48,997 nt of DNA from Candidatus Micrarchaeota archaeon (GTDB lineage Archaea; Micrarchaeota; Micrarchaeia; Micrarchaeales; CABMGC01): the NCBI GenBank assembly GCA_027345185.1, contig DAHWIK010000038.1:1-48997 (forward strand), written 5' to 3'. The notes under the pieces were generated by a model. That model had not been told where the DNA came from. It made no database searches and was given only the letters and a program-made list of their open reading frames with translations. Below are positions 6,875 to 32,338 of this stretch, piece by piece. Positions within the stretch are counted from its first letter, which is position 1; the number at the start of each line of letters is the position of its first letter. The translations under genes and the position numbers were made by a program.

Positions 6875-8092
6875 ATGCTCACTCTATCAAAGGAAAAAGG
6901 CACAGGCGGAAAGGTGAAGAGCTCTCCAGAGGACTTCATAGTAAGGGAGATAGAGGCAAACGGAGCAGTGCTTAAGGAGGGCGTCAAGTACTCCCCTGGC
7001 GACGTCGGAGAATCGCAGGATGAGGATGGAGAGTTTACGAAGTTCGTGCTCCAGAAGAGGGACTGGGACACAATACACGCGCTGATAACCATAGGCAAGC
7101 TGCTCGGCAGGGGAAAGAAGTCAATAGGCTACTTCGGCTCCAAGGACAGGCTATCCGTCTCCACCCAGCTGGCAAGCCTGTACGGAGTAGATCCGCTTCA
7201 GCTCATGCAGATAAAGATAAAGGACATATCGATAAACGGGGCATGGAAGAGCAAGACTGCCGTGGATCTGGGAAAGAACATAGGCAACTCATTCTCCGCG
7301 ACGATAAGGGAATGCAAGGACCCTGACAGGATAAAGGCCGTGGCAGAGGAGCTTGACGGGTTCATGCCTAATTACTTCGACAGGCAGAGGTTCGGCATAC
7401 GCATGAACAACGCGGAGATAGGAATGTGCACGATACGCGGTGAGTTCGAGGACGCGGTTATGAAGTTCCTTACGGACACGCAGTTCGAGACTAACAAGGC
7501 CTCCGTGGAAGCGAGGAAGAGGCTCAAGGAGGAGATGGACTTCAAGAAGGCTGCAGAGTATTTCCCAAAGAACCTGAGGAACGAGAGGATGGCTATAGAG
7601 TACCTGGCCAGGTACGACAACTATGCCAATGCGCTGAGGAAGATACCAAGAGGCATTCTTGTCATGTTCATACACTCGGTGCAGTCGATGGTATTCAACA
7701 AGGCGCTCGAGATGAGGATAAAGGACGAAGACTTCAAGTCCAATCTCAGCTGCAGGAAGAACTTCTACGGATTCCCAGACATAGGGAGCATGGGTGCAGG
7801 CAGCGGGGATTTCGCACTGGCAAACCTTATAGGATACGAGACAAAGCCGGAGCTCATAGACGATTACGAAAGGGAGGTGCTGGAAAAGGCAGGCCTCCAG
7901 CCAGGCGACATGAAGATAAAATCGATGCCGGAGCTGAGCATGAAGGGCTCGCATAGGGTGCTGCTTGCCCCTGTAAAGGATCTCTCATATGTATCAGAAG
8001 AGGACTCCGCAAAGGTTGATTTCTCTATACCGGCAGGAAGCTACGCCACGATACTCCTAGCCGAGATAACAAAGAACCAGGAGAGCATATAA
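6875..8092 (+). CDS. truD: tRNA pseudouridine synthase TruD/Pus7 family
   Basis: SPEDFIVREI near the N-terminus and the GSKDRLSVSTQ catalytic-Asp motif (GxKD). Confidence 0.85.
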   Translation: MLTLSKEKGTGGKVKSSPEDFIVREIEANGAVLKEGVKYSPGDVGESQDEDGEFTKFVLQKRDWDTIHALITIGKLLGRGKKSIGYFGSKDRLSVSTQLASLYGVDPLQLMQIKIKDISINGAWKSKTAVDLGKNIGNSFSATIRECKDPDRIKAVAEELDGFMPNYFDRQRFGIRMNNAEIGMCTIRGEFEDAVMKFLTDTQFETNKASVEARKRLKEEMDFKKAAEYFPKNLRNERMAIEYLARYDNYANALRKIPRGILVMFIHSVQSMVFNKALEMRIKDEDFKSNLSCRKNFYGFPDIGSMGAGSGDFALANLIGYETKPELIDDYEREVLEKAGLQPGDMKIKSMPELSMKGSHRVLLAPVKDLSYVSEEDSAKVDFSIPAGSYATILLAEITKNQESI

Positions 8093-8230
8093 TCAGCATG
8101 ATTCTTTGCTGGCATACCAAAACAACAAGACTGTTAATAATTCTGCTAAAAATTGACATGTTTAAATACGAGTTTTGCGCACAATATTGATGCTGTTGAT
8201 GCACCAAATTGCGTCAATTGCATTGCTGGT

Positions 8231-9493
8231 ATGATGATACGACCAAAGATAAAAGAGCAGCCGAATGAGGACCGCAGGTCAGTCATCAAAAGCGTTGCTC
8301 GGAAGGCCGCTGCAGTGGCGCTTGCAGCCTCGCTGAGCATAGGCGCAGGCGCAGCATTTGGCTCATCCAATTCCATTCCAATTGCAGCAGATGCTTATGC
8401 CACGCAGACCTGCAGCGGACAGGTCGCTGCCGCAACGCAGATATCACTGGATCACACTGTCGATCCGGTTATTGCCAATGCGGATAACAAGGCAATGTCC
8501 GCCCTTCAGAAGATGTACAATCCGTCCACCGGCCTATTCAACGGCGCGCAATGGTGGCAGCAGCCAGTGATCCTCCAGACTATAATGGATTATTCGCAGC
8601 TGTCCCATAATTACAAGTACATGGGTGATGTCTGCAGGACATTCGTGCTGAACAGAGGCGGAAATTTCCTGAATGCCTTTAATGACGACGAAGGATGGTG
8701 GGCGCAGGCCTGGCTCCAGGCGTACGGAATGACAAAAAACCCGCAGTATCTGGGCATGGCCAAATCACTGTTTAACAACATGTCCGAAAGTTGGAACGGC
8801 GAATGCGGCGGAGGAATATTGTGGTACAAATACGGTCCATACAAAAACGCAATCGCAAACGAATTATTCATGAGCGTTGCGCTGTCGCTATACTCTGCAA
8901 CCGGTGACAAGGCCTATCTGGACTGGTCGTTCAAGGAGTATGATTGGTTCATGCGCACCGGGCTCCTGGGACGCTCAAATCAGGTAAAAGACGGACTTGG
9001 CAGAGGCTGCGTCGCAGGCGGAGGCATATGGACGTACAACCAGGGCGAACTTATCGGCGCACTTACCCGCCTCACACGGATAACAGGAAACAAGCTATAT
9101 ATCGGAAAGGCAGAGGCAATTGCAACATCAAACGATGCTGAGAGCACCGGCAAATCCGGCACACTTCATGAAATAGGCTGCGCCCACACCAGTCACTGCA
9201 ACATAAGCACCGACAATTTAGGCTCAGGCAATTCAAAGCGCACGACAGGATTTTCAGTCGATAACGCACAGTTCAAGGGCATATACATCATGAACTTATA
9301 CTATATGTACCAGACGGATCACAATGCCGCATATCTAGACTTCATTCTTAAGAATGCACGCGCTATCGAGTCAAAAGACAACAATGGCAGGAACATCATC
9401 GGCCTGAACTGGAGCGATCCATCACGATATTGGAGCGTGACAGAGGCAAGTACCCAGGCCAGCGGCATTGCTGCCCTGAATGCAGGCCAATAA
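8231..9493 (+). CDS. Secreted glycoside hydrolase family 76-like protein (alpha-1,6-mannanase-like) with a Tat-type signal
   Basis: FNDDEGWWAQAWLQAY (the GH76 DD motif context) and WWQQP. The N-terminus is MMIRPK..DRRSVIK followed by an Ala-rich hydrophobic stretch, which looks like a twin-arginine signal. The ORF is open from 8153, but I prefer the ATG at 8231. Confidence 0.6.
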   Translation: MMIRPKIKEQPNEDRRSVIKSVARKAAAVALAASLSIGAGAAFGSSNSIPIAADAYATQTCSGQVAAATQISLDHTVDPVIANADNKAMSALQKMYNPSTGLFNGAQWWQQPVILQTIMDYSQLSHNYKYMGDVCRTFVLNRGGNFLNAFNDDEGWWAQAWLQAYGMTKNPQYLGMAKSLFNNMSESWNGECGGGILWYKYGPYKNAIANELFMSVALSLYSATGDKAYLDWSFKEYDWFMRTGLLGRSNQVKDGLGRGCVAGGGIWTYNQGELIGALTRLTRITGNKLYIGKAEAIATSNDAESTGKSGTLHEIGCAHTSHCNISTDNLGSGNSKRTTGFSVDNAQFKGIYIMNLYYMYQTDHNAAYLDFILKNARAIESKDNNGRNIIGLNWSDPSRYWSVTEASTQASGIAALNAGQ

Positions 9494-9761
9494 AAATGTC
9501 CTGTCAGCTCGGGCTCGCGGCGGCTCCTGTATACTGGTGCTCATACTAATGATACGCCGGGATTGGGATTTCCAAAGCTTCTGATCAAACTTTTTCAAAA
9601 GTTTATTTGAACCCAAAAAGCCCGAAGGCCACCAGATCTCGAGTTTCGCCATTTCTTCTGGCGCGATACCGGATTCTGCCATCCCGGCGCAACAATAAGA
9701 CTTGAACGATAAAAGTAATAAATACCCTTATGCTCATTATAATTGAATTACGCCTGATTCG

Positions 9762-11318
9762 ATGGTTACTACTTTAAAGAAGTCAACGTTGAGGCTCTTT
9801 GTTGTGCTTCTCTTCGTGTTTCTTACGCTATCTGGCCTTATATTCTCGCTCTACCTGATCTATTACGGAGCGCACACGCTGTATACATACGTGCTCGCGT
9901 CCCTGTTCATAATGCTCTCCCTGGTCTCGGGCTTCTTCAACATATTCATAGCCTATTCATACTACAAATCATCATTCTACAGCGAGTATCTTGAGGGCAT
10001 AAAGAGGTACCTCAAGCCGCTAAGCGAACATCCAACAGTAGCAATAGTCATGCCGGTATACAACGAGGATCCGTATACGGTCAAGAGGAACATGCTGAAG
10101 CTAAAAGGCATGAAATATCCAAAAGAGAGGATGCATTTCTACCTGCTTGACGACTCAACGAACGAGCAGCTAAGGAGCGACCTGCGCAGATTCGCAGATT
10201 CGAATGGCATAGCATACATACACAGGGACTCACGCTCCGGATTCAAGGCAGGTGCGCTGAACAACATGCTCAAGCACTCAAAGGACCAATACATAGCCCT
10301 CTTCGACTATGACGAGTACCTGACAAACGCCAACTTCCTCGAGGACCTGCTTCCGTATTTCGAGGACAAGAAGCTTTCATACATACAGACTGAGAAGAGG
10401 TATTTCAAGGGCACCTTCTTCTCCGACACAGTGGACCTGTTCGACGCCTTCTTCTTCAAGTTCGTGCAGCCTTCCAGGGCGCTGAACAATACGGCGATAT
10501 TTGCAGGATCATGTGGGCTCATAAGGAGGTCTGCGCTTGACAGGATAGGCGGATTCCCAGAATACATAATAGAGGACACCTTCTTCAGCCTGGAGTCAGA
10601 CATGCACAACTACACGAGCATATACCTGCCCAAGGTTTACGCATACGGCAAGCCGATAACCACATTCACGGACCTCGTCAAGCAGCAGTGGAGGTACAAT
10701 TACGGGGACACGCAGTTCATGCTCTATTACCTGAACAGGTCAAAGAACCCTGAAGCCAAGAGGCAGAGCCTAATGTCAAAGATAGACTATGTGACCCACG
10801 GCCTAGGCATGAACTATGTATCGGTCATACTCATAATGTTCACCTTGATGTCCGTCCTGATAATATTCGCAGCCGTGTCGCCGTCGGAGGTGACCGTTGC
10901 CCAGATGCTTCAGGCCAAGTACATAACCACTGCAATGGAGGTGCTGGGCATAAGCACGTTCGTCATGAGCATAATAGCGCCTGTTGTCCTAACCAAGATA
11001 CACTTCAAGTCATTGAGGAAGGGCTTCATGGTCTTCACCCTCAACTTCTCACTCTCCTTCATAAGGACAAAGGCAGCCCTTGCCGCAGCAATGAACCATT
11101 CTCCGAGCGCAGGCTGGGCAAAGGGCGAGAGCCGCGCAATAAAGAGCAGGGCGCTGCACACCCTGAGAAGCACGCTCACGGAGACTACATTCTCATCGAC
11201 CCTGCTTGTCCTGGGCCTCTTTGCGTTCCTGTTCAACAACGTATACGGTGCCATATGGCTGATATGGTACGCCATACTCTACTCCTCGACATTCATACTG
11301 TTCTACAAATATGGCTGA
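9762..11318 (+). CDS. Membrane-embedded processive family 2 glycosyltransferase (cellulose/chitin/hyaluronan synthase-like)
   Basis: VMPVYNED, LLDDS, FDYDE and the QQWRY (QxxRW) motif. Two N-terminal and several C-terminal TM helices. A TATA-like box lies about 20-25 nt upstream. Confidence 0.8.
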   Translation: MVTTLKKSTLRLFVVLLFVFLTLSGLIFSLYLIYYGAHTLYTYVLASLFIMLSLVSGFFNIFIAYSYYKSSFYSEYLEGIKRYLKPLSEHPTVAIVMPVYNEDPYTVKRNMLKLKGMKYPKERMHFYLLDDSTNEQLRSDLRRFADSNGIAYIHRDSRSGFKAGALNNMLKHSKDQYIALFDYDEYLTNANFLEDLLPYFEDKKLSYIQTEKRYFKGTFFSDTVDLFDAFFFKFVQPSRALNNTAIFAGSCGLIRRSALDRIGGFPEYIIEDTFFSLESDMHNYTSIYLPKVYAYGKPITTFTDLVKQQWRYNYGDTQFMLYYLNRSKNPEAKRQSLMSKIDYVTHGLGMNYVSVILIMFTLMSVLIIFAAVSPSEVTVAQMLQAKYITTAMEVLGISTFVMSIIAPVVLTKIHFKSLRKGFMVFTLNFSLSFIRTKAALAAAMNHSPSAGWAKGESRAIKSRALHTLRSTLTETTFSSTLLVLGLFAFLFNNVYGAIWLIWYAILYSSTFILFYKYG

Positions 11319-24659: not shown

Positions 24660-24736
24660 TATATTTATACCTTTTTATATCAGACTTGCCCAACAACCGC
24701 ATGAAATGCAAGGAATTATATATCCTGTTTAATAAT

Positions 24737-24744
24737 GTTATAAC
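24737..24744. promoter_or_regulatory. Palindrome GTTATAAC (TGTTA/TAAC half-sites) between a TATA-like box and the RHH gene start
   Basis: Read directly. The TATA-like AATTATATAT lies near 24715-24725 and the RHH ATG is at 24768. Confidence 0.4.
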
Positions 24745-24767
24745 GTCATGTGGCACGATGTGAATCT

Positions 24768-25001
24768 ATGAAGAAAGGTCAGACTACAGAGAAGAGAAAG
24801 TACACAACAATAACAATACCTACAAGATTATTCGAAAAGATACAGGAAAGGATAAAGGATACCGGGTTCTCATCAGTATCCGATTACGCCACATATATAT
24901 TGCGTGATACGCTTGCAGACATGGCCATGGGCAAAAAGAAGGGCAACAGTGAAACTGGCAACGTAGTTGAGAAGCTCAGGGCTTTGGGTTACGTGGACTG
25001 A
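24768..25001 (+). CDS. Ribbon-helix-helix (CopG/Arc/MetJ-like) DNA-binding protein with a CysD-like C-terminal tail
   Basis: KYTTITIPTRLFEKIQERIKDTGFSSVSDYATYILRDTL shows a beta-alpha-alpha RHH pattern. The C-terminus is VVEKLRALGYVD. The ORF is open from a GTG at 24750. Confidence 0.65.
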   Translation: MKKGQTTEKRKYTTITIPTRLFEKIQERIKDTGFSSVSDYATYILRDTLADMAMGKKKGNSETGNVVEKLRALGYVD

Positions 25002-25108
25002 CATTGTGACAGAAGCAACTACGACTCAGGCGCTCAAGCAGGCATTTTCTTCAGGTGTAGTATACGATAAAACAAGATGTAACCAAACTTGAAGAGAGAA
25101 GCATATTC

Positions 25109-25852
25109 GTGATCAGGGAGGCAAAGTCAAGATTCAAGAATGTGGCTGCACTATGGAGCATGGGCAAGGACAGCACTGCAATGCTTTCCATAGCAAGAAA
25201 GGCGTTTCTGGGCAAAGTGCCATTCCCAGTAATACATATTGACAACTCGATCGATTTTCCTGAAACATACCAATTCAGGGAGAACCTCGAGAGGATGTGG
25301 AAGCTTGACCTTATAGTAGAAAAGAGCAAAATAAAGCCAAACTTATCCGGCGCAGCATGCTGCGGCGCGAACAAATCCGCAGCACTCAAGAAGGTCATGT
25401 CAAAATACGGATTCGATGCCCTGATAGTGTCGATAAGGAGAGATGAGCATGCAATAAGGGCAAAGGAAAGATACATGTCCCCAAGGGACGAGCACTTCAG
25501 GTGGAACTACAGGGACCAGCCTGCGGAGATGTGGGGCGACTATTCACAGAGCCCGGATTCAAAGGGGCACATAAGGGTGCATCCGCTGCTCGATTTCAAT
25601 GAGATTGACATATGGCAGTACATACAGAAGAACAAGGTGCCAGTGAATCCTCTCTATTTTTCAAGGAATGGATTCAGGTACAGAAGCCTTGGATGCACGC
25701 GCTGCACATCTCCAGTCAGGTCAAATGCGAATAATGTCAAGGAAATAATAAAAGAGCTCGAAACCACCACTGTCGAGGAGAGATCGGGGCGTGACCAGGA
25801 TAAGGAACAGGAGTATTCAATGCAGAAACTGAGAGAATTAGGGTACATGTAA
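25109..25852 (+). CDS. cysD: Sulfate adenylyltransferase subunit 2 (CysD, PP-loop ATP pyrophosphatase). Its true N-terminus probably lies upstream of the annotated GTG
   Basis: WSMGKDS PP-loop, HIDN..FPET, RRDEHAIRAKER, IRVHPLLDF..DIWQYI, RYRSLGC, ERSGR and a C-terminal KLRELGYM. All are collinear with E. coli CysD as I remember it. Confidence 0.8.
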   Translation: MIREAKSRFKNVAALWSMGKDSTAMLSIARKAFLGKVPFPVIHIDNSIDFPETYQFRENLERMWKLDLIVEKSKIKPNLSGAACCGANKSAALKKVMSKYGFDALIVSIRRDEHAIRAKERYMSPRDEHFRWNYRDQPAEMWGDYSQSPDSKGHIRVHPLLDFNEIDIWQYIQKNKVPVNPLYFSRNGFRYRSLGCTRCTSPVRSNANNVKEIIKELETTTVEERSGRDQDKEQEYSMQKLRELGYM

Positions 25853-25861
25853 GCTGGTCGA

Positions 25862-27097
25862 ATGCGGATAAATAGGATAGTTGTCTTGGGCAACAAGGAC
25901 CATGGCAAATCCACTATTATAGGCAGCATGCTCATAGCAACAAAATCCGTTTCCGAGGAAAGGGTAAAAGAGGCAAGAAGGCAGAGCAAGAGGCTTGGAA
26001 AGAGGTTCGAGCCGGGCTTCATACTAGACAGCTTTTCCGCAGAACGCGAAGGCGGGCTGACAATCGACGCGTCAATGGCGCAGATAAAATACAGAGACTC
26101 TGCGTTCGAGCTCATAGACGTGCCGGGCCATGAGGAGCTGATAAAGAACATGGTAAGCGGGGCATCATATGCCAAGTTCGCCATTCTGGCAGTATCAGCT
26201 AAAAGAAGTGAGGGAATCTGCCCGCAGACAAAGAGGCACGTTTTCCTTGCCAAGATGCTCGGCATAAATAACATAATAGTAGCAGTAAACAAGATGGATA
26301 CTGTCGGATACAGCGAGAGCAGGTTTAATGAGCTAAAGCATGAGCTATGCATATTCTTGGATAGAATTGGAATAGAAAGCAAAAATGTCAAGTTTGTGCC
26401 GATATCCGCTTACAATTCAGATAATCTTGCAAGCGTATCAAAAAATATCCGGTGGCACTCAGGCAAGTCACTGCTTGAAGAGATGAGAATCCTGTCAAAA
26501 CACGGAAACGATGCGGCATCTGATGGAAATCTGCGGGTCATACTACAGGGAAGCATGATGCACGGAACAGATTCCCTGCTTATAGGAAATGTTGCAAGTG
26601 GGACAGTAAAGGCCGGCAGCATGGTAAGGATACTGCCCATCGGAACAGCATCAAGGATAAGCACGCTGTTTGTAAAAGGCCAAAAGAGAAGATATGCAAA
26701 TGCCGGAGAAAATGTTGCCATAAAGCTCGATAGTCAAGTTAGCGCCGATTTAAGGGGCGCAGTGGTATACAACTACGACTACAAAAATGCGAACGTTGCA
26801 AACCATTTAGATGCACTAATCTTCATGACCAAGAAGATCAAAGTAGGCGTGTCAATAAAGTTCAACGGAATCGAGCTCAATGGAAAGGTAAAGATAAAGA
26901 CGGTGATTGACACTGCAGATGGCTCAGAAAACGGTCCAAAGCATGAACAACCTCTGAACGCCGCAGTTGTCCGCATAGAGCTCGAACACGGAGTACCCGC
27001 AGAGCCGTTCAACTCTTCAAAAGAGCTTGGCCGATTCGTGCTTTATCAGGCAGGCAAATTTTCAGGAATCGGGATAATAAGCTCGGTCTCAAAATAA
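25862..27097 (+). CDS. cysN: CysN-type translational-family GTPase (sulfate adenylyltransferase subunit 1-like, no APS kinase domain)
   Basis: G1 GNKDHGKST, AEREGGLTID, G3 DVPGHEE and G4 NKMD. The PQTKRHVFLAKMLGINNIIVAVNKMD and FVPISAYNSDN blocks are collinear with E. coli CysN. Two beta-barrel domains follow. Confidence 0.78.
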   Translation: MRINRIVVLGNKDHGKSTIIGSMLIATKSVSEERVKEARRQSKRLGKRFEPGFILDSFSAEREGGLTIDASMAQIKYRDSAFELIDVPGHEELIKNMVSGASYAKFAILAVSAKRSEGICPQTKRHVFLAKMLGINNIIVAVNKMDTVGYSESRFNELKHELCIFLDRIGIESKNVKFVPISAYNSDNLASVSKNIRWHSGKSLLEEMRILSKHGNDAASDGNLRVILQGSMMHGTDSLLIGNVASGTVKAGSMVRILPIGTASRISTLFVKGQKRRYANAGENVAIKLDSQVSADLRGAVVYNYDYKNANVANHLDALIFMTKKIKVGVSIKFNGIELNGKVKIKTVIDTADGSENGPKHEQPLNAAVVRIELEHGVPAEPFNSSKELGRFVLYQAGKFSGIGIISSVSK

Positions 27098-27114
27098 ATC
27101 ATATTTGCCGCGTT

Positions 27115-27441
27115 TTACATTCCGCGTAGCCTAAGCATAAGGGCTCTTGTAATTAAGAAGCGTTCATTTCCCAGTACACTTGCTACTTTCTCGTTTTCGT
27201 AATCCCTAACCAGCGAATGTATCCCTTTTCTCTGTGCCTGCTTTATCTTCCCTTCCGGTGAGTCATCCAGGATATACCCAGGATTCTCATGTATCCTGTC
27301 ATTCGGATCAGGTATCCAGGATCTATTGTCCAGATAAACTATGGCTTTCAGTGCTTCCGACGGCTTGCCTGACTCAAGTGACCTTCTCACCGATTCCACA
27401 GAGAACCTCTCGCTCCTTTTCTCGCTCATTTTTTGAAACAT
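27115..27441 (-). CDS. Hypothetical 108-aa protein downstream of the CysH-fold gene
   Basis: ORF only, with no recognisable motif. It lies 84 nt downstream of the preceding same-strand gene and is convergent with cysN. Confidence 0.4.
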   Translation of the reverse strand: MFQKMSEKRSERFSVESVRRSLESGKPSEALKAIVYLDNRSWIPDPNDRIHENPGYILDDSPEGKIKQAQRKGIHSLVRDYENEKVASVLGNERFLITRALMLRLRGM

Positions 27442-27525
27442 CCCCGTATTATCACCATTAGGGCAGTGTGAAGCCTGCCAAACACCACGGCAGGCTCCAT
27501 TATCAAGATTCTCTTTAATCGGGTC

Positions 27526-28320
27526 TTAGGTGTAACCCAAAGCCCTGAGCTTCTTCATCACCCTCTCCCTTGCAACTCCCCTTCCTGCTCTTTCATGCAT
27601 TCCAGGGTTCTTGTTAGGCGTGGTGTCGATCGTGGAGCCCAGTGAAGTATAACCTCTGTCATAAAGCGGATGGTATGGGAGCTTGTTTGATTTTATGTAC
27701 TCGATCACGTTCTCCCTTCTCCAGAACAGCAGCGGATGCACTCTTATATGAACTGGATTGTGCCTGACAGAGAACAGGTTTTCCTTTGCCCTCTCCTCAT
27801 GCTCAGTTCCTCTTATGCCGTTAATGAAGGCGTCAAAGTCCAGTGTCCTTATCCCTCTGTTAAGGGGCTCTATTTTATGGTATTTATTGAATTCCAAAGT
27901 AAATCTAGGCGTTCCCTTTCCGTATTTTTTTGTAAATTCCCCAAGTCTGTCCTTTCCGGCCCTAACAGTAGTAAGGCTCTCAATGTTCCATTCCGTCCTA
28001 ATCCTTTCTATAAAACCTGCCGTTTCTGGGAATTCGTATCTAGTATCAACGAACAGCACTGGCACATCTGGCTTGAGCTGCAATAGCATATGCAACAGCA
28101 CTTCGCTGTCAGCTCCACCGCTGAACCCTACGCCCACATTCCTATATCTCCTGATCGCTTCCTTAATCACTTCCCTGCTCTTCTTCACTTTCTTTTCCAA
28201 AGGCCAGTCAATCATTGCCTTTATCTCAGGCTTCATCAGGTCTATGCATCTCTGGGTCCTGTCGCTTCCAAATTCATCTGCAGGGGGGCTGTTGGGTTCC
28301 GCTTCGTTTTTATTTGACAT
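27526..28320 (-). CDS. PAPS reductase (CysH)-fold PP-loop protein lacking the catalytic C-terminal Cys motif and carrying a CysD-type tail
   Basis: FSGGADS PP-loop. KPDVPVLFVDTRYEFPET, KIEPLNRGI and LPYHPLYDRGYTSLGS are collinear with E. coli CysH. The C-terminus is ERAGRGVARERVMKKLRALGYT where CysH has ECGLH. Confidence 0.75.
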   Translation of the reverse strand: MSNKNEAEPNSPPADEFGSDRTQRCIDLMKPEIKAMIDWPLEKKVKKSREVIKEAIRRYRNVGVGFSGGADSEVLLHMLLQLKPDVPVLFVDTRYEFPETAGFIERIRTEWNIESLTTVRAGKDRLGEFTKKYGKGTPRFTLEFNKYHKIEPLNRGIRTLDFDAFINGIRGTEHEERAKENLFSVRHNPVHIRVHPLLFWRRENVIEYIKSNKLPYHPLYDRGYTSLGSTIDTTPNKNPGMHERAGRGVARERVMKKLRALGYT

Positions 28321-28343
28321 TCAATCACTTAAATATAGTTTAA

Positions 28344-28363
28344 TGTAATAACATGTTACTACA
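28344..28363. promoter_or_regulatory. Imperfect 20-bp palindrome TGTAATAACATGTTACTACA (perfect core TAACATGTTA) in a divergent promoter region
   Basis: Read directly. It lies 24 nt upstream of the CysH-fold gene start at 28320 and about 100 nt upstream of the GT-C gene. Confidence 0.45.
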
Positions 28364-28461
28364 TGCAAATATATAAACCTTTGTTTTTGGCTCCAATAGA
28401 AGGGCTAATCAAGCTGGACCTTCGCAGTGTTTTTAAATTCACACCCATAATACCTAAATAA

Positions 28462-30759
28462 ATGGGCACCAATTTGAAGCACAAAATAAAAGAGCATGTA
28501 TCGGCTGCAAAGCCATACTGCAAGCCATTTCTGATATACCTTGCAATATCCCTGGTCATGTTCTGGCAGGTTACAGCGAATATATTCGGTTATGTGGTGA
28601 ACGGCCACGGAGACGTATACCAGAGCCTGTTCAACCTATGGTGGGCTCCGTATTCGGTTTTTATGCTGCACCAATCACCATATTTCACCAATCTCCTGTT
28701 TAGTCCTATCGGTGCAAATCTTGCCACACAAACATTAATGCCGCTGGCAGGGATTATCACCGCTCCACTGCAGCTTGTCAGCCCTGCATTTGCCTACAAT
28801 GCGCTCTTCTTCAGCAGTTTTGCGCTGTCTGGCATATTCATGTTCTATCTTGCAGAATATCTGCTCAAGAACAGATACGCGGCTTTCATAGCTGGACTTG
28901 TCTACGCCTTTGCTCCGATGCACATAGCCCAATCCTACATCCACCTTGACTGGACCATAATAGAATGGATCCCGTTATTACTCCTGTTCTATATTAAAAC
29001 CATAAATGAGCGCAAGATGAAATATGCCTTCTTGGCTGCCGTTAGTCTAGTACTTGCAACCTTCATGGGAGACATTGAGCAGGGGATAATGGCATCATTG
29101 GCCATAGCCTTATTCACGATACTGTACTTCGTATTTAATCGGAAGGACATACTGGGCCAGCTTCGGCCATATCTTACCTACATATGCTATTTCCTAATGT
29201 TTACTTTTGTAATGTGCATCCCATTCCTTATTGCCATGCTTCCTTACCTAAACGGCAACGCCTTATCCACCGCGCAGCAGGGCTCCAGTACCTTGAGCAA
29301 CATGCTTGAGAGCAACAATCTCCTCTCATTTTTCCTTCCGAGCTATTACAACGGGATTTTCCATTCCCTATCCTTGTCGTATGCTCCTGATATATACTCG
29401 TTGACTTCTGCTGGGATTACATACCAAACCACAGTGGCCACATCGCACGGGTTCGAGTACATAATGAACATAAATGAGCGCGTTTCGTATATCGGATATA
29501 CTGTTCTTGCATTGACAGCCGTTGGCCTGTACTCTGATTTCAAGAAGAACAAGCTTCAGCACCTTGGAATATGGCTTGTGCTAGGAATAATATTTGCCTG
29601 GCTATCCCTTGGGCCTTACATACAGATAGGCAGCGATATAACCGGCATACCATCATTATACCTCATTTATAAATATATCCCAATTCTCAACATAATAAGA
29701 GAACCGGGGAGATTTGACCTGATATTTACCCTCTGCCTGGGAATAATGGCCGCATTCGGGTTCCAGCACCTAGTAAAGGATAAGGGCGGAAAAGCCGCAT
29801 TCAGGTACGCTGCCATAATATCTATACTAATACTTATAGAATACAACGGCATGCCTCTGTCAGGATCTTTTGCAAACTCCCTGATAACTTCCACCAGGGT
29901 GCCATCGGTGTACAATGAACTTGGAAATATAACCAAAAACTTTTCAGTCCTTATACTGCCCGCCCTTGCAAACACATCGTCATCGCCAGTCCAGTACCCT
30001 GGCCTTGAGACATACTACGTATCCGTGCTTCATAAGCCGATAATGGGGGGATATACAAGCAGGGAAAACAGCAGCCAAACAAGCTCAATAAGCGAAATAC
30101 CACTAGCAATCTCTGCTACTGCACTGGAAGAGGGCAGAGGATTGGCATACGCATCGCCCATAAATGAAAATGAAAGCAATGTGACTCTGTTCTGGCTTGC
30201 CAATTCTAACGTCCATTTCGTTTCAGTAATAAGATCTGCATACAACGGCTCTGAGCAGCAACAGCTATACGCGTACCTGAGTGGCTTATTCGGCCAGCCG
30301 GTCTACCAAGACAATTCTACATATGTTTTCGGGACCAGCGGGGCAATTTCAAGATCCATGGGCAAATCATCAATCGCATATCTTATAGGAAACTGGACCT
30401 ACGGCAGTACCATCCTGGGCCCATCGTTTTGCAACCAGAACCTGCAGTGCAACCCAACAAACGCAAATGCCTGGTGGGGGTTCAATCCGAGGGGCATGGA
30501 GATATTTTCTCCAGAAACAGAAAAAACCCGCATCTCCTTTTCGGTGCACACCTATTTGCAGAATAACACAAACTTAGAGATCGCCCTAAATAACGAGGTT
30601 ATCGGCAATGTCAATTTGTACACGACACCGGAAGAGTATTCGCTGAATGTCACATTATCAAAAGGATTTAATGAGCTGGAATTTTATGACCCAAATTTGA
30701 TTATCCCAACCCAAGCCCAGTATATAACTTATGGCATAGAAAACATAACGATAATATGA
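28462..30759 (+). CDS. Polytopic membrane protein with a large C-terminal extracytoplasmic domain (GT-C-fold glycosyltransferase-like, YfhO/PMT/ArnT-like)
   Basis: More than 10 predicted TM helices over about 450 aa. An acidic motif (NGHGDVYQ) sits in the first loop. The ~300-aa soluble C-terminal domain carries sequons. Confidence 0.45.
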   Translation: MGTNLKHKIKEHVSAAKPYCKPFLIYLAISLVMFWQVTANIFGYVVNGHGDVYQSLFNLWWAPYSVFMLHQSPYFTNLLFSPIGANLATQTLMPLAGIITAPLQLVSPAFAYNALFFSSFALSGIFMFYLAEYLLKNRYAAFIAGLVYAFAPMHIAQSYIHLDWTIIEWIPLLLLFYIKTINERKMKYAFLAAVSLVLATFMGDIEQGIMASLAIALFTILYFVFNRKDILGQLRPYLTYICYFLMFTFVMCIPFLIAMLPYLNGNALSTAQQGSSTLSNMLESNNLLSFFLPSYYNGIFHSLSLSYAPDIYSLTSAGITYQTTVATSHGFEYIMNINERVSYIGYTVLALTAVGLYSDFKKNKLQHLGIWLVLGIIFAWLSLGPYIQIGSDITGIPSLYLIYKYIPILNIIREPGRFDLIFTLCLGIMAAFGFQHLVKDKGGKAAFRYAAIISILILIEYNGMPLSGSFANSLITSTRVPSVYNELGNITKNFSVLILPALANTSSSPVQYPGLETYYVSVLHKPIMGGYTSRENSSQTSSISEIPLAISATALEEGRGLAYASPINENESNVTLFWLANSNVHFVSVIRSAYNGSEQQQLYAYLSGLFGQPVYQDNSTYVFGTSGAISRSMGKSSIAYLIGNWTYGSTILGPSFCNQNLQCNPTNANAWWGFNPRGMEIFSPETEKTRISFSVHTYLQNNTNLEIALNNEVIGNVNLYTTPEEYSLNVTLSKGFNELEFYDPNLIIPTQAQYITYGIENITII

Positions 30760-30871: not shown

Positions 30872-32338
30872 ATGAAGAAACTTTACATGATTGGAATAGA
30901 CGCGGTTCCTTTATGGATACTTGAGCAGCTTAGGAAGGAGAAGGGCCTGGGGATATTCGATAAGATGCTTAAGGACGGCACCATTGTGGACATGGAATCA
31001 ACGCTGCCTCCGATGACCGGCCCTGCCTGGCCCACGATATACACTGGCCTTAAGCCAGGCGAGCATGGAGTTCCGGATTTTTTCACGATGAGCAGGGACT
31101 ACACTCCGGATCTGGCATTCTATGACTCATACAGTGTGCCTCCATTCTGGAAGAAGCTGGCAGAAGATGGGAAAAAGTGCCTCTTGATAACTCCTGCAAC
31201 AGACATAACGCTTCCTGACTATGCGAATGTAGACATGATAACCGGATTTCCGCTTCCTGCAAAGTCGAACACAAAAGAACTCAGGAGCCTGATGAAAAAG
31301 TACAAATTTAAAGGGGAGCCTGACATAGAAGCGGACATAAAAAGCGGGAAGATGAGCATAGACGAGGCTGTAAGGGAATTTATCAGGAGCATAAGGGCAA
31401 GGGTATCGATAGCCAAGGAGATGATGGCCCAGAAAGACTACGATTTTATCTATGTCTGCTTTACAGAGACGGACAGGATACAGCATTTCATAATGGGAGA
31501 AAAGAACATGAAGGAGCACATACTTCCAATATACGCGGAGCTTGCGTCATTCGTGGATGACATTGCCAAGTCTGCGGAGAAAGAGGGCTCGCTTATGATC
31601 GTAGTATCGGATCATGGAATGCAGCCTATAAAGGGCAAATTCCTTATAAATTCTTGGATGGTCAACAACGGATATGCCAGATTTAAGGAATCTTTCGCAA
31701 ATTCAATGAAGGGCTCAGGAAAAGAGGGCTCAATATCATACAGCGTAAGAGAGAAGCTGCTCAAGACAAAACTTAGGAAGGTATATGATAAGATGCCTCA
31801 TCAGGTGAAGAGGGCCACGTTCAAGATGATGGGGTCAGCGTTTTCAGGGTCTGCGTCAGGAGAGTATGTAAGGATGCATCTCTTTGATCTTGACATGGGT
31901 GTCACAAAAGCCTTTGCAGCCATAGCAAACGAACCTGTGTCGACAATATGGATAAACGACGAGCGCTTCTCCAGCCCTACTGTCAGCAAAAAAGATAAGG
32001 ATAAACTTAAGTCAGAACTGATAAGCGGCCTGAAAAAGGTAAAAACCCCAGAAGGCGAACAGCTCATAGTCGATGTGATCGATGGTGACTCATATTACGG
32101 GAAAACCAAAAAGTTCATGGCTCCAGACCTGTTCATAGAGGCCAGGAAGGGCTACACCATAGACCTGTTTTACTACTCAACGAGCACGAACTTCATGAGG
32201 CCGGAAGGCGCCAAGAGCGGTGACCACCTGAGGAGTGGCATATTCGGATACTATCCGAAGACATTCAAGATCGACACAAAAGGCATGAACGTGGCCGATG
32301 TAATGCCGACAGTGCTTAGATACTTCAATTCAGGATAG
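30872..32338 (+). CDS. Alkaline-phosphatase superfamily enzyme (type I phosphodiesterase / nucleotide pyrophosphatase family)
   Basis: IGIDAVP, STLPPMTGPAWPTIYTGLKPGEHGV and VVSDHGM are metal-ligand and nucleophile blocks of this family. No signal peptide. Confidence 0.7.
   Translation: MKKLYMIGIDAVPLWILEQLRKEKGLGIFDKMLKDGTIVDMESTLPPMTGPAWPTIYTGLKPGEHGVPDFFTMSRDYTPDLAFYDSYSVPPFWKKLAEDGKKCLLITPATDITLPDYANVDMITGFPLPAKSNTKELRSLMKKYKFKGEPDIEADIKSGKMSIDEAVREFIRSIRARVSIAKEMMAQKDYDFIYVCFTETDRIQHFIMGEKNMKEHILPIYAELASFVDDIAKSAEKEGSLMIVVSDHGMQPIKGKFLINSWMVNNGYARFKESFANSMKGSGKEGSISYSVREKLLKTKLRKVYDKMPHQVKRATFKMMGSAFSGSASGEYVRMHLFDLDMGVTKAFAAIANEPVSTIWINDERFSSPTVSKKDKDKLKSELISGLKKVKTPEGEQLIVDVIDGDSYYGKTKKFMAPDLFIEARKGYTIDLFYYSTSTNFMRPEGAKSGDHLRSGIFGYYPKTFKIDTKGMNVADVMPTVLRYFNSG

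Follow-up and report, generated by a model that had tools for sequence, protein, structure and literature searches.

In the CysE-CysK cysteine synthase complex, and in its mimics CdiA-CT/CysK and, in Bacillus, CymR-CysK, a short C-terminal tail docks into a sulfur-pathway enzyme. A short C-terminal tail is also the subject of the present work. In a stretch of 48,997 bases from a Micrarchaeota (DPANN) archaeon (the window), which we analysed by listing and translating its open reading frames (ORFs), the motif KLR[AE]LGY ends a small protein of ribbon-helix-helix (RHH) type, a CysD-like protein, and a protein that resembles the reductases of 3'-phosphoadenosine 5'-phosphosulfate (PAPS) and adenosine 5'-phosphosulfate (APS) but lacks their catalytic cysteine (Cys-less, hereafter CysH-like). 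The locus is the Micrarchaeota version of a widespread gene module for sulfate activation and sulfo-transfer, consisting of CysD with a GTPase similar to elongation factor 1A (EF1A), the Cys-less PAPS-reductase-like enzyme, usually a sulfatase or phosphodiesterase of the alkaline phosphatase (AP) superfamily, and an RHH repressor. The likeness to CysE-CysK is that unrelated proteins, a transcription factor complex among them, would use a common mode of docking and that regulation would be coupled to the state of an enzyme or ligand. The motif itself is different, being ...GDGI or ...GYGI-COOH in that system and KLRxLGY followed by 0-2 residues in ours, and the enzyme folds differ as well; moreover, the enzyme here bears the tail as its own lid, and docking is inferred from sequence.

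Other described systems are comparable in part. The repressors Mnt and Arc are small RHH proteins acting on a palindrome of two half-sites that overlaps the promoter, and Mnt has an extra C-terminal helix; in our protein, however, the match to the Pfam family RHH_1 is weak, and the tail, of only about 10 residues, is the same as that of the enzymes that would be regulated. The arrangement of CysD-CysN (1ZUN; CysDN of E. coli), in which a CysD-like protein ending in ...GY-hydrophobic is followed by a translational-type GTPase, is also found here, but this GTPase is nearer to archaeal EF1A (aEF1A) and has no APS-kinase domain, none being encoded nearby, and in the operon a tail-bearing RHH gene comes first, usually with a gene for a protein of about 98 amino acids (aa), and an AP-superfamily enzyme comes after. 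With the APS and PAPS reductases, whose R(S/E/A)GR motif lies on a mobile C-terminal lid and contacts the substrate sulfate (PMC8173546), our enzymes share the fold, an RxGR at the start of the tail (RAGRG, RSGR) and a predicted helical tail. The reductases have R(S/E/A)GR(W/F) ... ECG(L/I)H, whereas here RE..M..LR.LGY replaces the cysteine motif and the distal tail is common to non-homologous proteins. Finally, the helix of the ribosomal stalk protein aP1 on aEF1A (3WY9; PMC4267659) is likewise amphipathic, C-terminal and joined through a flexible charged linker, with an EF1A paralogue as the candidate receptor in our case, but the distribution of our tail is independent of the GTPase and, by alignment, K324 of aEF1A is not conserved.

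A C-terminal tail common to an RHH protein and two PP-loop enzymes

The three genes that carry the tail, and the GTPase gene, are located in the window as follows.

24768-25001, plus strand: RHH-like protein, 77 aa, C-terminus GNVVEKLRALGYVD
24963-24998, plus strand: LGY tail of the RHH-like protein, VVEKLRALGYVD, residues 66-77
25109-25852, plus strand: CysD-like PP-loop protein, ATP sulfurylase small subunit type, 247 aa from the GTG at 25109, C-terminus EYSMQKLRELGYM
25781-25849, plus strand: C-terminal lid of CysD, with RSGR at 25781-25792, then the LGY tail YSMQKLRELGYM at 25814-25849
25862-27097, plus strand: EF1A/CysN-type GTPase, 411 aa, with G1 GNKDHGKS, G3 DVPGH and G4 NKMD intact
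27526-28320, minus strand: Cys-less PAPS-reductase-like (CysH-like) protein, 264 aa, C-terminus RERVMKKLRALGYT
27529-27591, minus strand: C-terminal lid of the CysH-like protein, with RAGRG at 27577-27591 and the LGY tail RVMKKLRALGYT at 27529-27564

ORF translation gave the three C-termini exactly as the original prediction for this DNA had quoted them. In the window the KLR[AE]LGY end is restricted to these RHH-like, CysD-like and CysH-like proteins, and when all 48,997 bases were scanned in six frames, LGY was found no more than two residues from the stop of a real ORF at three places only. The strict core [KR]L[RK].LGY occurs 0 times in other ORFs of at least 100 aa (718,200 residues from about 2 Mb of related loci), and the sharing of the tail is therefore far beyond chance. 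The KLRxLGY tail is a predicted short amphipathic helix with a Gly-Tyr cap at its end.

To follow the tail in relatives, one genome per GTDB species was scanned, which gave 156 genomes with a relative; 80 loci were fetched (L007-L086; these and other related loci are cited below by L numbers), of which 74 were informative and 6 were cut by contig ends. Orthologues of both the RHH and the CysH-fold protein keep the tail. It ends the RHH protein in 80/80 GTDB species loci and in 120/120 homologues among the matches listed, the CysD adjoining the RHH gene in 69/69 cases, and the CysH-like homologues in 120/120 among the matches listed. The consensus is [VI][IVM]EKL[RK]ALGY plus 1-2 residues in the RHH proteins (L70, G74 and Y75 invariant), Y[VI]M[EQ][KR]LR[AS][LF]GY[ML] in CysD and R[IV]MKKLRxLGY[NT] in the CysH-like proteins, and the tail positions of the RHH proteins and of the enzymes hardly vary. 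From archaea to bacteria of the candidate phyla radiation (CPR), the Gly and Tyr of the RHH tail are invariant, the Tyr never being Phe, although the RHH proteins are only about 40% identical. Within the 80 loci anchored on the RHH gene the carriers are RHH and PAPS_reduct proteins only, with two exceptions: a 117-aa chimera in L017, described below, and one unclassified ORF that matches the loose pattern only. When the RHH domain without its tail was used as a query against 1.84 billion representatives, at least 150 matches were obtained, and 106 of 150 still end in the tail, most of the others being fragments; the tail consensus of this wider RHH family is FSxEDEEKVKERLRALGYLD.

The proposal that a ...GY tail is a trait of the CysD family was well founded. 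The C-terminus of E. coli CysD is as the original prediction gave it, and CysD of P. syringae (1ZUN), which ends in SMEEKKRQGYF, also aligns with the CysD tail of the window. That an RHH protein and a CysH-fold enzyme carry the tail as well, which had been thought undescribed, is real and strongly conserved, and no description of it was found in the searchable literature. Papers on RHH proteins with PAPS reductase, on sulfate activation in Micrarchaeota, and on PAPS reductase with sulfatase in DPANN or CPR organisms describe neither the tail nor the module, and the searchable papers mentioning CysDN hold nothing on the role of the CysD tail.

The tail as the distal part of the enzyme lid

The CysD-like protein matches PF01507 at 1.2e-36 and 1ZUN_A at 1e-47, and passes the NCBIfam model NF003587 with 274.5 bits against a cut-off of 195, its score being below the stricter TIGR02039 (203 versus 396.6). 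From model score and from its GTPase neighbour, it can be assigned as a probable CysD (sulfate adenylyltransferase subunit 2). The CysH-like protein matches PF01507 at 3.7e-44 and stays below the CysH cut-offs (NF002537, 136.5 versus 154). Its AlphaFold2 (AF2) model has a mean confidence (pLDDT) of 89, and the top Foldseek matches, 6VPU, 1SUR and 2GOY, are PAPS or APS reductases. The protein has both the fold and the R(S/E/A)GR motif of these reductases but not the catalytic cysteine: the window protein is free of Cys over its last 40 residues, and the catalytic motif ECG(L/I)H is present in 0/120 of the CysH-like homologues listed. Because this motif is absent from the 120 homologues, the CysH-like proteins are not reductases of known mechanism.

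The CysH-like homologues end in HERAGRG..RE..M..LR.LGY[TN], with R244, G246, R247, G248, R251, E252, M255, L258, R259, G262 and Y263 invariant. In alignments CysD has ER[SQ]GR and then the tail, just as the CysH-like proteins have RxGR and then the tail. The tail thus forms the distal portion of the mobile lid at the C-terminus of these enzymes, coming after RxGR in place of the catalytic ECGLH, and the two paralogues share it because their lids are homologous. In the AF2 model of the CysH-like protein, the tail helices 243-247 and 249-260 have a pLDDT of 63-75 versus more than 90 for the core.

The start of the CysD gene is anomalous. The fifteen codons 5' of its GTG (25061-25108, YTIKQDVTKLEERSIF) encode an N-terminus that homologues conserve; directly before them, at 25058-25060, stands an in-frame TAG, and no ATG, GTG or TTG occurs before 25109. 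In the close relative L173 a Ser codon takes the place of this TAG, and the ORF runs on upstream. Translation might begin at a non-canonical codon or read through the TAG; alternatively, there may be a sequencing error, or the N-terminus may be truncated.

The RHH protein and its putative operator

The RHH-like protein has a basic N-terminus, a strand (RKYTTITIP), two helices, a variable basic linker and a C-terminal helix. The family alignment has a conserved core, RKYTTITIP ... TGFSSVSDY.TYILRET, followed by the variable basic linker and the near-invariant tail, and the AF2 model (mean pLDDT 80) is extended at residues 12-18 and helical at 19-29, 37-57 and 64-73, with a low-confidence linker. 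Matches to RHH_1 were obtained for 12/30 family members, with a best E of 0.0031, and the window protein matched no family model at E<=0.01. Foldseek with the monomer model gave no meaningful match, which is expected because the RHH fold exists only as a dimer. Homologues are annotated as CopG or Arc/MetJ by NCBI and JGI, and it is from the NCBI names of RHH homologues that the window is assigned to Micrarchaeota. The weak Pfam matches, the predicted strand-helix-helix topology and a palindromic operator together point to an RHH protein.

This putative operator is a perfect 16-bp palindrome, TAATGT-N4-ACATTA (TAATGTTATAACATTA), common to the regions upstream of the RHH genes. Scanning 1.31 Mb of related loci with at most 3 mismatches gave 84 sites, 74 of which are located at RHH or CysH-like promoters. 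The site is found just 5' of the called start of the RHH ORF, or overlapping it where the start is over-called, in 71/80 loci, and at the start of the CysH-like ORF in three loci (L025, L031 and L053). In the window 2 sites were observed versus 0.18 expected, each with a TATA-like box.

24716-24723, plus strand: TATA-like box of the RHH operon promoter, TTATATAT, 9 nt 5' of operator O1
24733-24748, strand not applicable: operator O1, TAATGTTATAACGTCA, 2 mismatches to the palindrome, 19 nt 5' of the RHH ATG
28341-28356, strand not applicable: operator O2, TAATGTAATAACATGT, 3 mismatches, 20 nt 5' of the CysH-like start
28369-28377, minus strand: TATA-like box of the CysH-like gene, upstream of O2

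O1 thus lies between its TATA-like box and the RHH ATG, and O2, read on the minus strand, between its TATA-like box and the CysH-like start. L173 carries sites equivalent to both, and AT-rich TATA-like boxes are present at the matching position in related loci. As the operator is downstream of the TATA box, repression is implied. The half-site centres are 10 bp apart, the spacing expected for two RHH dimers of repressors of the Arc/Mnt type, and therefore two dimers would sit on one face of the DNA. These observations suggest that the RHH protein is an autorepressor that, by binding the putative operators, controls both the CysD-GTPase operon and the CysH-like gene. The role in transcription that had been proposed for it is consistent with operators 5' of the RHH-CysD-GTPase operon and of the CysH-like gene, but the part of that proposal in which it senses the state of the GTPase is not supported, since the tails persist without a CysN-like GTPase nearby. 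In nanoarchaeal-type relatives, an AT-rich palindrome of the type TAATTAT...ATAATTA occupies the equivalent position.

Gene content of related loci

The 80 loci anchored on the RHH gene are of the following types.

65/80 loci: RHH, then (~98-aa protein), then CysD, then GTPase, usually followed by a PF01663 phosphodiesterase or sulfatase-like gene
8/80 loci: RHH with CysH-like gene and sulfatase or phosphodiesterase, no GTPase within ±10 kb
1/80 loci: RHH with a divergent tail-bearing CysD between two sulfatases, no GTPase
6/80 loci: RHH loci cut by contig ends

A tail-bearing PAPS_reduct gene stands beside the RHH gene in 74/74 informative loci, and an AP-superfamily gene accompanies it in 63/74. 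From the other side, 36/50 loci of at least 5 kb anchored on the CysH-like gene have a tail-bearing RHH gene. The pairing of RHH and CysH-like genes holds in Micrarchaeota, in Nanoarchaeota and in a CPR bacterium, the CysH-like family itself reaching Nanoarchaeota and CPR bacteria. On a Liptonbacteria contig, an RHH gene whose product ends in ...RERLKALGYL adjoins the CysH-like gene, and on a nanoarchaeal contig a sulfatase gene comes first, then an RHH gene (...RLRLKNLGY) and the CysH-like gene; both sets are found in glycan-biosynthesis clusters.

Other loci have fewer or different components. In the cultured Ca. Micrarchaeum A_DKE the set is reduced to its minimum, RHH, CysD and GTPase, and an AP enzyme is absent within ±10 kb; in L174 the RHH gene lies between two tail-less sulfatases. 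In the bacterial locus L175, the RHH gene is followed by a Sat-type ATP sulfurylase (no tail), a PF01663 phosphodiesterase, an APS kinase ending in KVLAKLKELGYIDNSEED / KLKELGYIDNSEED, and sugar-nucleotide enzymes (operon span 7001-10587); this looks like a cluster for PAPS-dependent glycan sulfation under the same kind of regulator. The common denominator of the tail loci is sulfate activation, sulfatase-like enzymes and the repressor, not the GTPase.

Several further observations were made on these loci. The ~98-aa protein encoded between RHH and CysD in about 61 Micrarchaeota loci (L001, 6231-6527) has the consensus ...NWeaFxkaLkkSgikYYrvvF..GKL...QDL.KS.AELYDsK...KVPIF...GK...GATIYLKGL...; only a sub-threshold match to ParBc_2 was found for it, and it is not encoded anywhere in the window. 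Pairs of CysH-like and sulfatase-like genes, and tail-bearing sulfatases, occur within surface-polysaccharide or glycan clusters (L087, L088, L089 and L170-L172), and such clusters in CPR bacteria and DPANN archaea include Wzy, flippases, epimerases and glycosyltransferases. In L089 a homologue of the RuBisCO large subunit lies directly 3' of the CysH-like gene.

The tail on other protein families

Several sulfatase-like enzymes in the loci anchored on the CysH-like gene end in ...ERLRNLGYF, ...KMLKKLGYLE or ...EMLKELGYVK. Of the listed homologues of one tail-bearing sulfatase (L113), 45/120 end in the motif, and these come from many bacterial phyla and from Woesearchaeota; since this set was seeded with a tail-bearing query, it is a biased sample. 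In fusions of sulfatase and TPR domains (P0264-P0358) the motif is internal, E..RL[RQ][AS]LGY[VI], at about residue 415 and at the junction of the two domains. Tail-bearing sulfatases are also found with no PAPS_reduct gene nearby, and the AP-superfamily neighbours of the PP-loop enzymes are mostly without the tail, which is carried by 0/66 and 4/58.

Beside some RHH genes there are mini-ORFs of 43-58 aa that consist of a highly charged, mostly acidic stretch and an LGY tail, for example EEEAEIKRRLRDLGYV (L103, 9043-9219; L115, 6240-6404; L118, 6260-6391; and in L162 just 5' of the RHH gene). They could be decoys, anti-repressors or remnants. A 473-aa fusion in L156 (2812-4233) joins an N-terminal region of about 240 aa to a tail-bearing CysH-like enzyme. 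As read from its sequence, this region appears to be AP- or phosphodiesterase-like, and the fusion suggests that the two types of enzyme work together physically. In L017, a locus without CysD and GTPase, a 117-aa ORF (2388-2741) combines the N-terminus of the ~98-aa family with a CysD-type tail, LMRQKLSALGYM. It looks like a deletion chimera, and shows how capture of the tail by another gene can happen.

Near-copies of the motif exist in unrelated proteins: eS17 has ETKEMLKKLGY (4BTS/9AXT, residues 91-111; peptide search E 0.02), and aEF1A of P. horikoshii has EKLLKTLGY internally, at residues 163-172. In our view LxxLGY is plausibly also a generic helix C-cap.

Possible receptors of the tail

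The reading that we favour, tentatively and at somewhat less than an even chance, is that the tail is a portable latch or docking helix that couples the repressor to the enzymes of the sulfation module. We favour it because the tail is conserved, specific, linked to PAPS_reduct, portable across families and homologous to the enzyme lid; the operator counts, which make the RHH protein a probable regulator of the module, also speak for it. The RHH protein, some sulfatase-like enzymes, an APS kinase and the acidic mini-proteins would each carry a copy of the tail on a flexible linker, and these copies would bind one common site in the module. This site might be the lid-docking groove of the PP-loop enzyme, the only neighbour found in 74/74 Micrarchaeota loci, or the AP-superfamily enzyme, the commonest neighbour overall. 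Perhaps the tails bind other tails, and this would also account for tetramerisation on the operator and for decoy mini-proteins. The repressor could then be titrated by the enzymes or could sense ligand state, with repression following the amount of enzyme or the state of the ligand. Some observations weigh against such docking. Any contact between tail and receptor is a deduction, and no neighbour is universal: loci of the A_DKE type have only RHH, CysD and GTPase, the RHH gene of L174 stands beside tail-less sulfatases only, and the Sat-type sulfurylase of L175 has no tail. With LxxLGY present in aEF1A and eS17, convergence could account for some of the recurrence, and the scarcity of tails among the AP-superfamily neighbours fits docking in trans but does not prove it.

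In the original prediction the receptor was the adjacent GTPase, described as CysN-like. The tail would dock on it as stalk tails do, one GTPase would serve both PP-loop enzymes, and the RHH protein would compete for it or sense its nucleotide state. We consider this very improbable. A translational-type GTPase is indeed encoded beside CysD, its gene beginning 10 nt past the CysD stop, but it scores nearer to archaeal EF1A than to CysN: against TIGR02034 (CysN) it has 228.1 versus a cut-off of 336.1, EF-1-alpha models score higher (265.7), it is below the cut-offs of both the EF1A and the CysN models, and the PDB comparison gives 204 bits for aEF1A and 163 bits for 1ZUN_B (CysN). Judged by position it is probably the partner of CysD, its score remaining short of CysN membership. 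In favour of docking on it, a GTPase gene is found 3' of CysD in 65/74 loci, the GTPase is a paralogue of aEF1A, and the C-terminal helix of aP1, LSALFG, resembles LRALGY. The residues of P. horikoshii aEF1A that contact aP1 are K125, F129, R132, L166, K324, L359, A360, I384 and S423 (PMC4267659), and the window GTPase has, by alignment, K, F, K, F, gap, I, gap, V and S at these positions, so that 7/9 are kept or conservatively replaced. Partial conservation of the cleft is expected, because the GTPase is an EF1A paralogue; the two gaps take the place of A360 and of K324, which is essential and reads the carboxylate of the peptide (PMC4267659).

What decides the matter is that the tails do not track the GTPase, and docking on it is therefore not supported. 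With GTPase neighbours judged within ±10 kb (GTDB loci) or ±8 kb (metagenome loci), pairs of RHH and CysH-like genes keep both tails with no CysN-like GTPase nearby in 8 GTDB loci, and L021, with its divergent tail-bearing CysD, brings the GTPase-free GTDB loci to nine. Such a GTPase was found in 0/79 metagenome loci anchored on the CysH-like protein, and the CPR and nanoarchaeal loci also have both tails and no such GTPase nearby. The tail is present, furthermore, on sulfatases, on an APS kinase and on RHH proteins beside Sat or sulfatases only, and in 1ZUN, where by count 204/325 residues of CysD are ordered, there is no sign of a CysN-bound tail. Loci with CysH-like and RHH genes but no CysN-like GTPase likewise count against one GTPase serving both PP-loop enzymes. 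The analogy to the stalk fails for the RHH and CysH-like tails and could apply only to the CysD-GTPase pair, in which a contact between the CysD tail and the GTPase is possible; such a contact would not explain the other two tails. We infer that the receptor of the tail is not the CysN-like GTPase.

A possible but rather unlikely explanation is that there is no shared receptor at all, LGY being a favourable helix end that is part of the lid in the enzymes and an oligomerisation helix like that of Mnt in the RHH protein, its identity with the neighbours being a relic of 3'-end capture or convergence. The operator half-sites, one helical turn apart, need a dimer of dimers, and a 77-aa RHH protein with a linker and a short helix does resemble Mnt. 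Such a reading also fits the motif in the unrelated aEF1A (internal) and eS17, its internal position at a domain end in the TPR-fused sulfatases, the RHH of L174 with no tail-bearing neighbour, and the chimera of L017, which shows that 3'-end capture occurs. However, a helix of 10 residues is short for a tetramerisation domain, the Tyr and Gly are invariant over RHH proteins from archaea to CPR, and some mini-ORFs contain hardly anything besides an acidic stretch and a tail. The strict core, moreover, is absent from the background yet recurs in five or six unrelated families, and always in sulfate-pathway loci. Returning to docking, a narrower form of it, which is improbable in its own right and whose chance is contained in that of the docking reading as a whole, makes an AP-superfamily enzyme the receptor. 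The tail would be given in trans by CysD, the CysH-like enzyme and the APS kinase in a channelling complex, and the repressor would share the site. AP genes occur with the RHH gene in 63/74 loci, in most loci anchored on the CysH-like gene and in L087, L088, L174 and L175; these neighbours lack the tail (0/66, 4/58) and many homologues of the L113 sulfatase carry it in cis, in a sample biased by its tail-bearing query; and L156 fuses the region read as AP-like to a CysH-like enzyme. Apart from that bias, which weakens the comparison, the A_DKE-type loci without an AP enzyme within ±10 kb speak against it, as does the E. coli type of CysD, which has a degenerate tail and no such partner.

A C-terminal degron was set aside, as the motif is conserved across archaea and bacteria with differing proteolytic machineries. 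A membrane-targeting helix was also set aside, the invariant L, G and Y being far more sequence-specific than known amphipathic anchors.

In true PAPS reductases, the sulfo group travels on the cysteine of the tail from the active site to thioredoxin. It is barely conceivable that our tail is such a swinging arm, on which the invariant terminal Tyr, in place of the reductase Cys, would accept sulfate (or AMP) from APS or PAPS. The group would then be passed to the AP-superfamily 'sulfatase', running in reverse as a glycan sulfotransferase, and the tails of the repressor, the APS kinase and the mini-proteins would be charged alike, so that transcription would read the charge of activated sulfate; these extensions share the same very slight chance.

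Meaning of the tail and the module

The types of gene described here are known. The searchable literature yielded no account of a C-terminal motif common to a transcription factor and to the unrelated enzymes it would regulate, conserved from DPANN archaea to CPR and other bacteria, nor of the module of Cys-less PAPS-reductase-like and sulfatase-like enzymes. Should the tail prove to be a docking code, a repressor without a ligand domain would be wired simply and transferably to the state of the enzymes it controls, and enzymes of different folds could be gathered into one pathway complex. The analysis also flags a very common, uncharacterised module in DPANN archaea and CPR bacteria, often in surface-glycan clusters, a hint that these host-attached organisms may have a route, so far unrecognised, for sulfating (or similarly modifying) the glycans of their cell surface. 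Were the swinging arm true, these DPANN and CPR organisms would have a new sulfation pathway independent of the sulfotransferase fold. Experimental handles exist in the defined operator, the 77-aa repressor, the 10-residue peptide and the cultured Ca. Micrarchaeum A_DKE.

Other genes of the window

Two further ORFs of the window are relevant to the module.

27115-27441, minus strand: 108-aa ORF between the GTPase and CysH-like genes, function unassigned
30872-32338, plus strand: AP-superfamily enzyme (PF01663 Phosphodiest), without LGY tail

The PF01663 enzyme has 70% identity to the phosphodiesterase encoded directly 3' of the GTPase gene in L001, and it is likely a member of the same module as the RHH, CysD and CysH-like genes. 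The 108-aa ORF had 0 matches in Pfam or NCBIfam; it is conserved in the close relative L173, with 86% identity and at an equivalent position, and is absent from the other loci. The window is thus an unusual variant, with both PP-loop enzymes, a lineage-specific 108-aa ORF and no ~98-aa gene. Its gene order is not an artefact of assembly, because L173 has the same order. No APS kinase or Sat-type sulfurylase was found in the window or in 160 related loci.

A 765-aa polytopic membrane protein with 0 Pfam matches is encoded at 28462-30759 on the plus strand, between the CysH-like gene and the phosphodiesterase gene, and may belong to the same surface-modification module. The flanking genes encode a threonyl-tRNA synthetase (ThrRS) of archaeal type, which has the archaea-specific editing domain, and a DnaG-like primase, also of archaeal type, with a Toprim domain.

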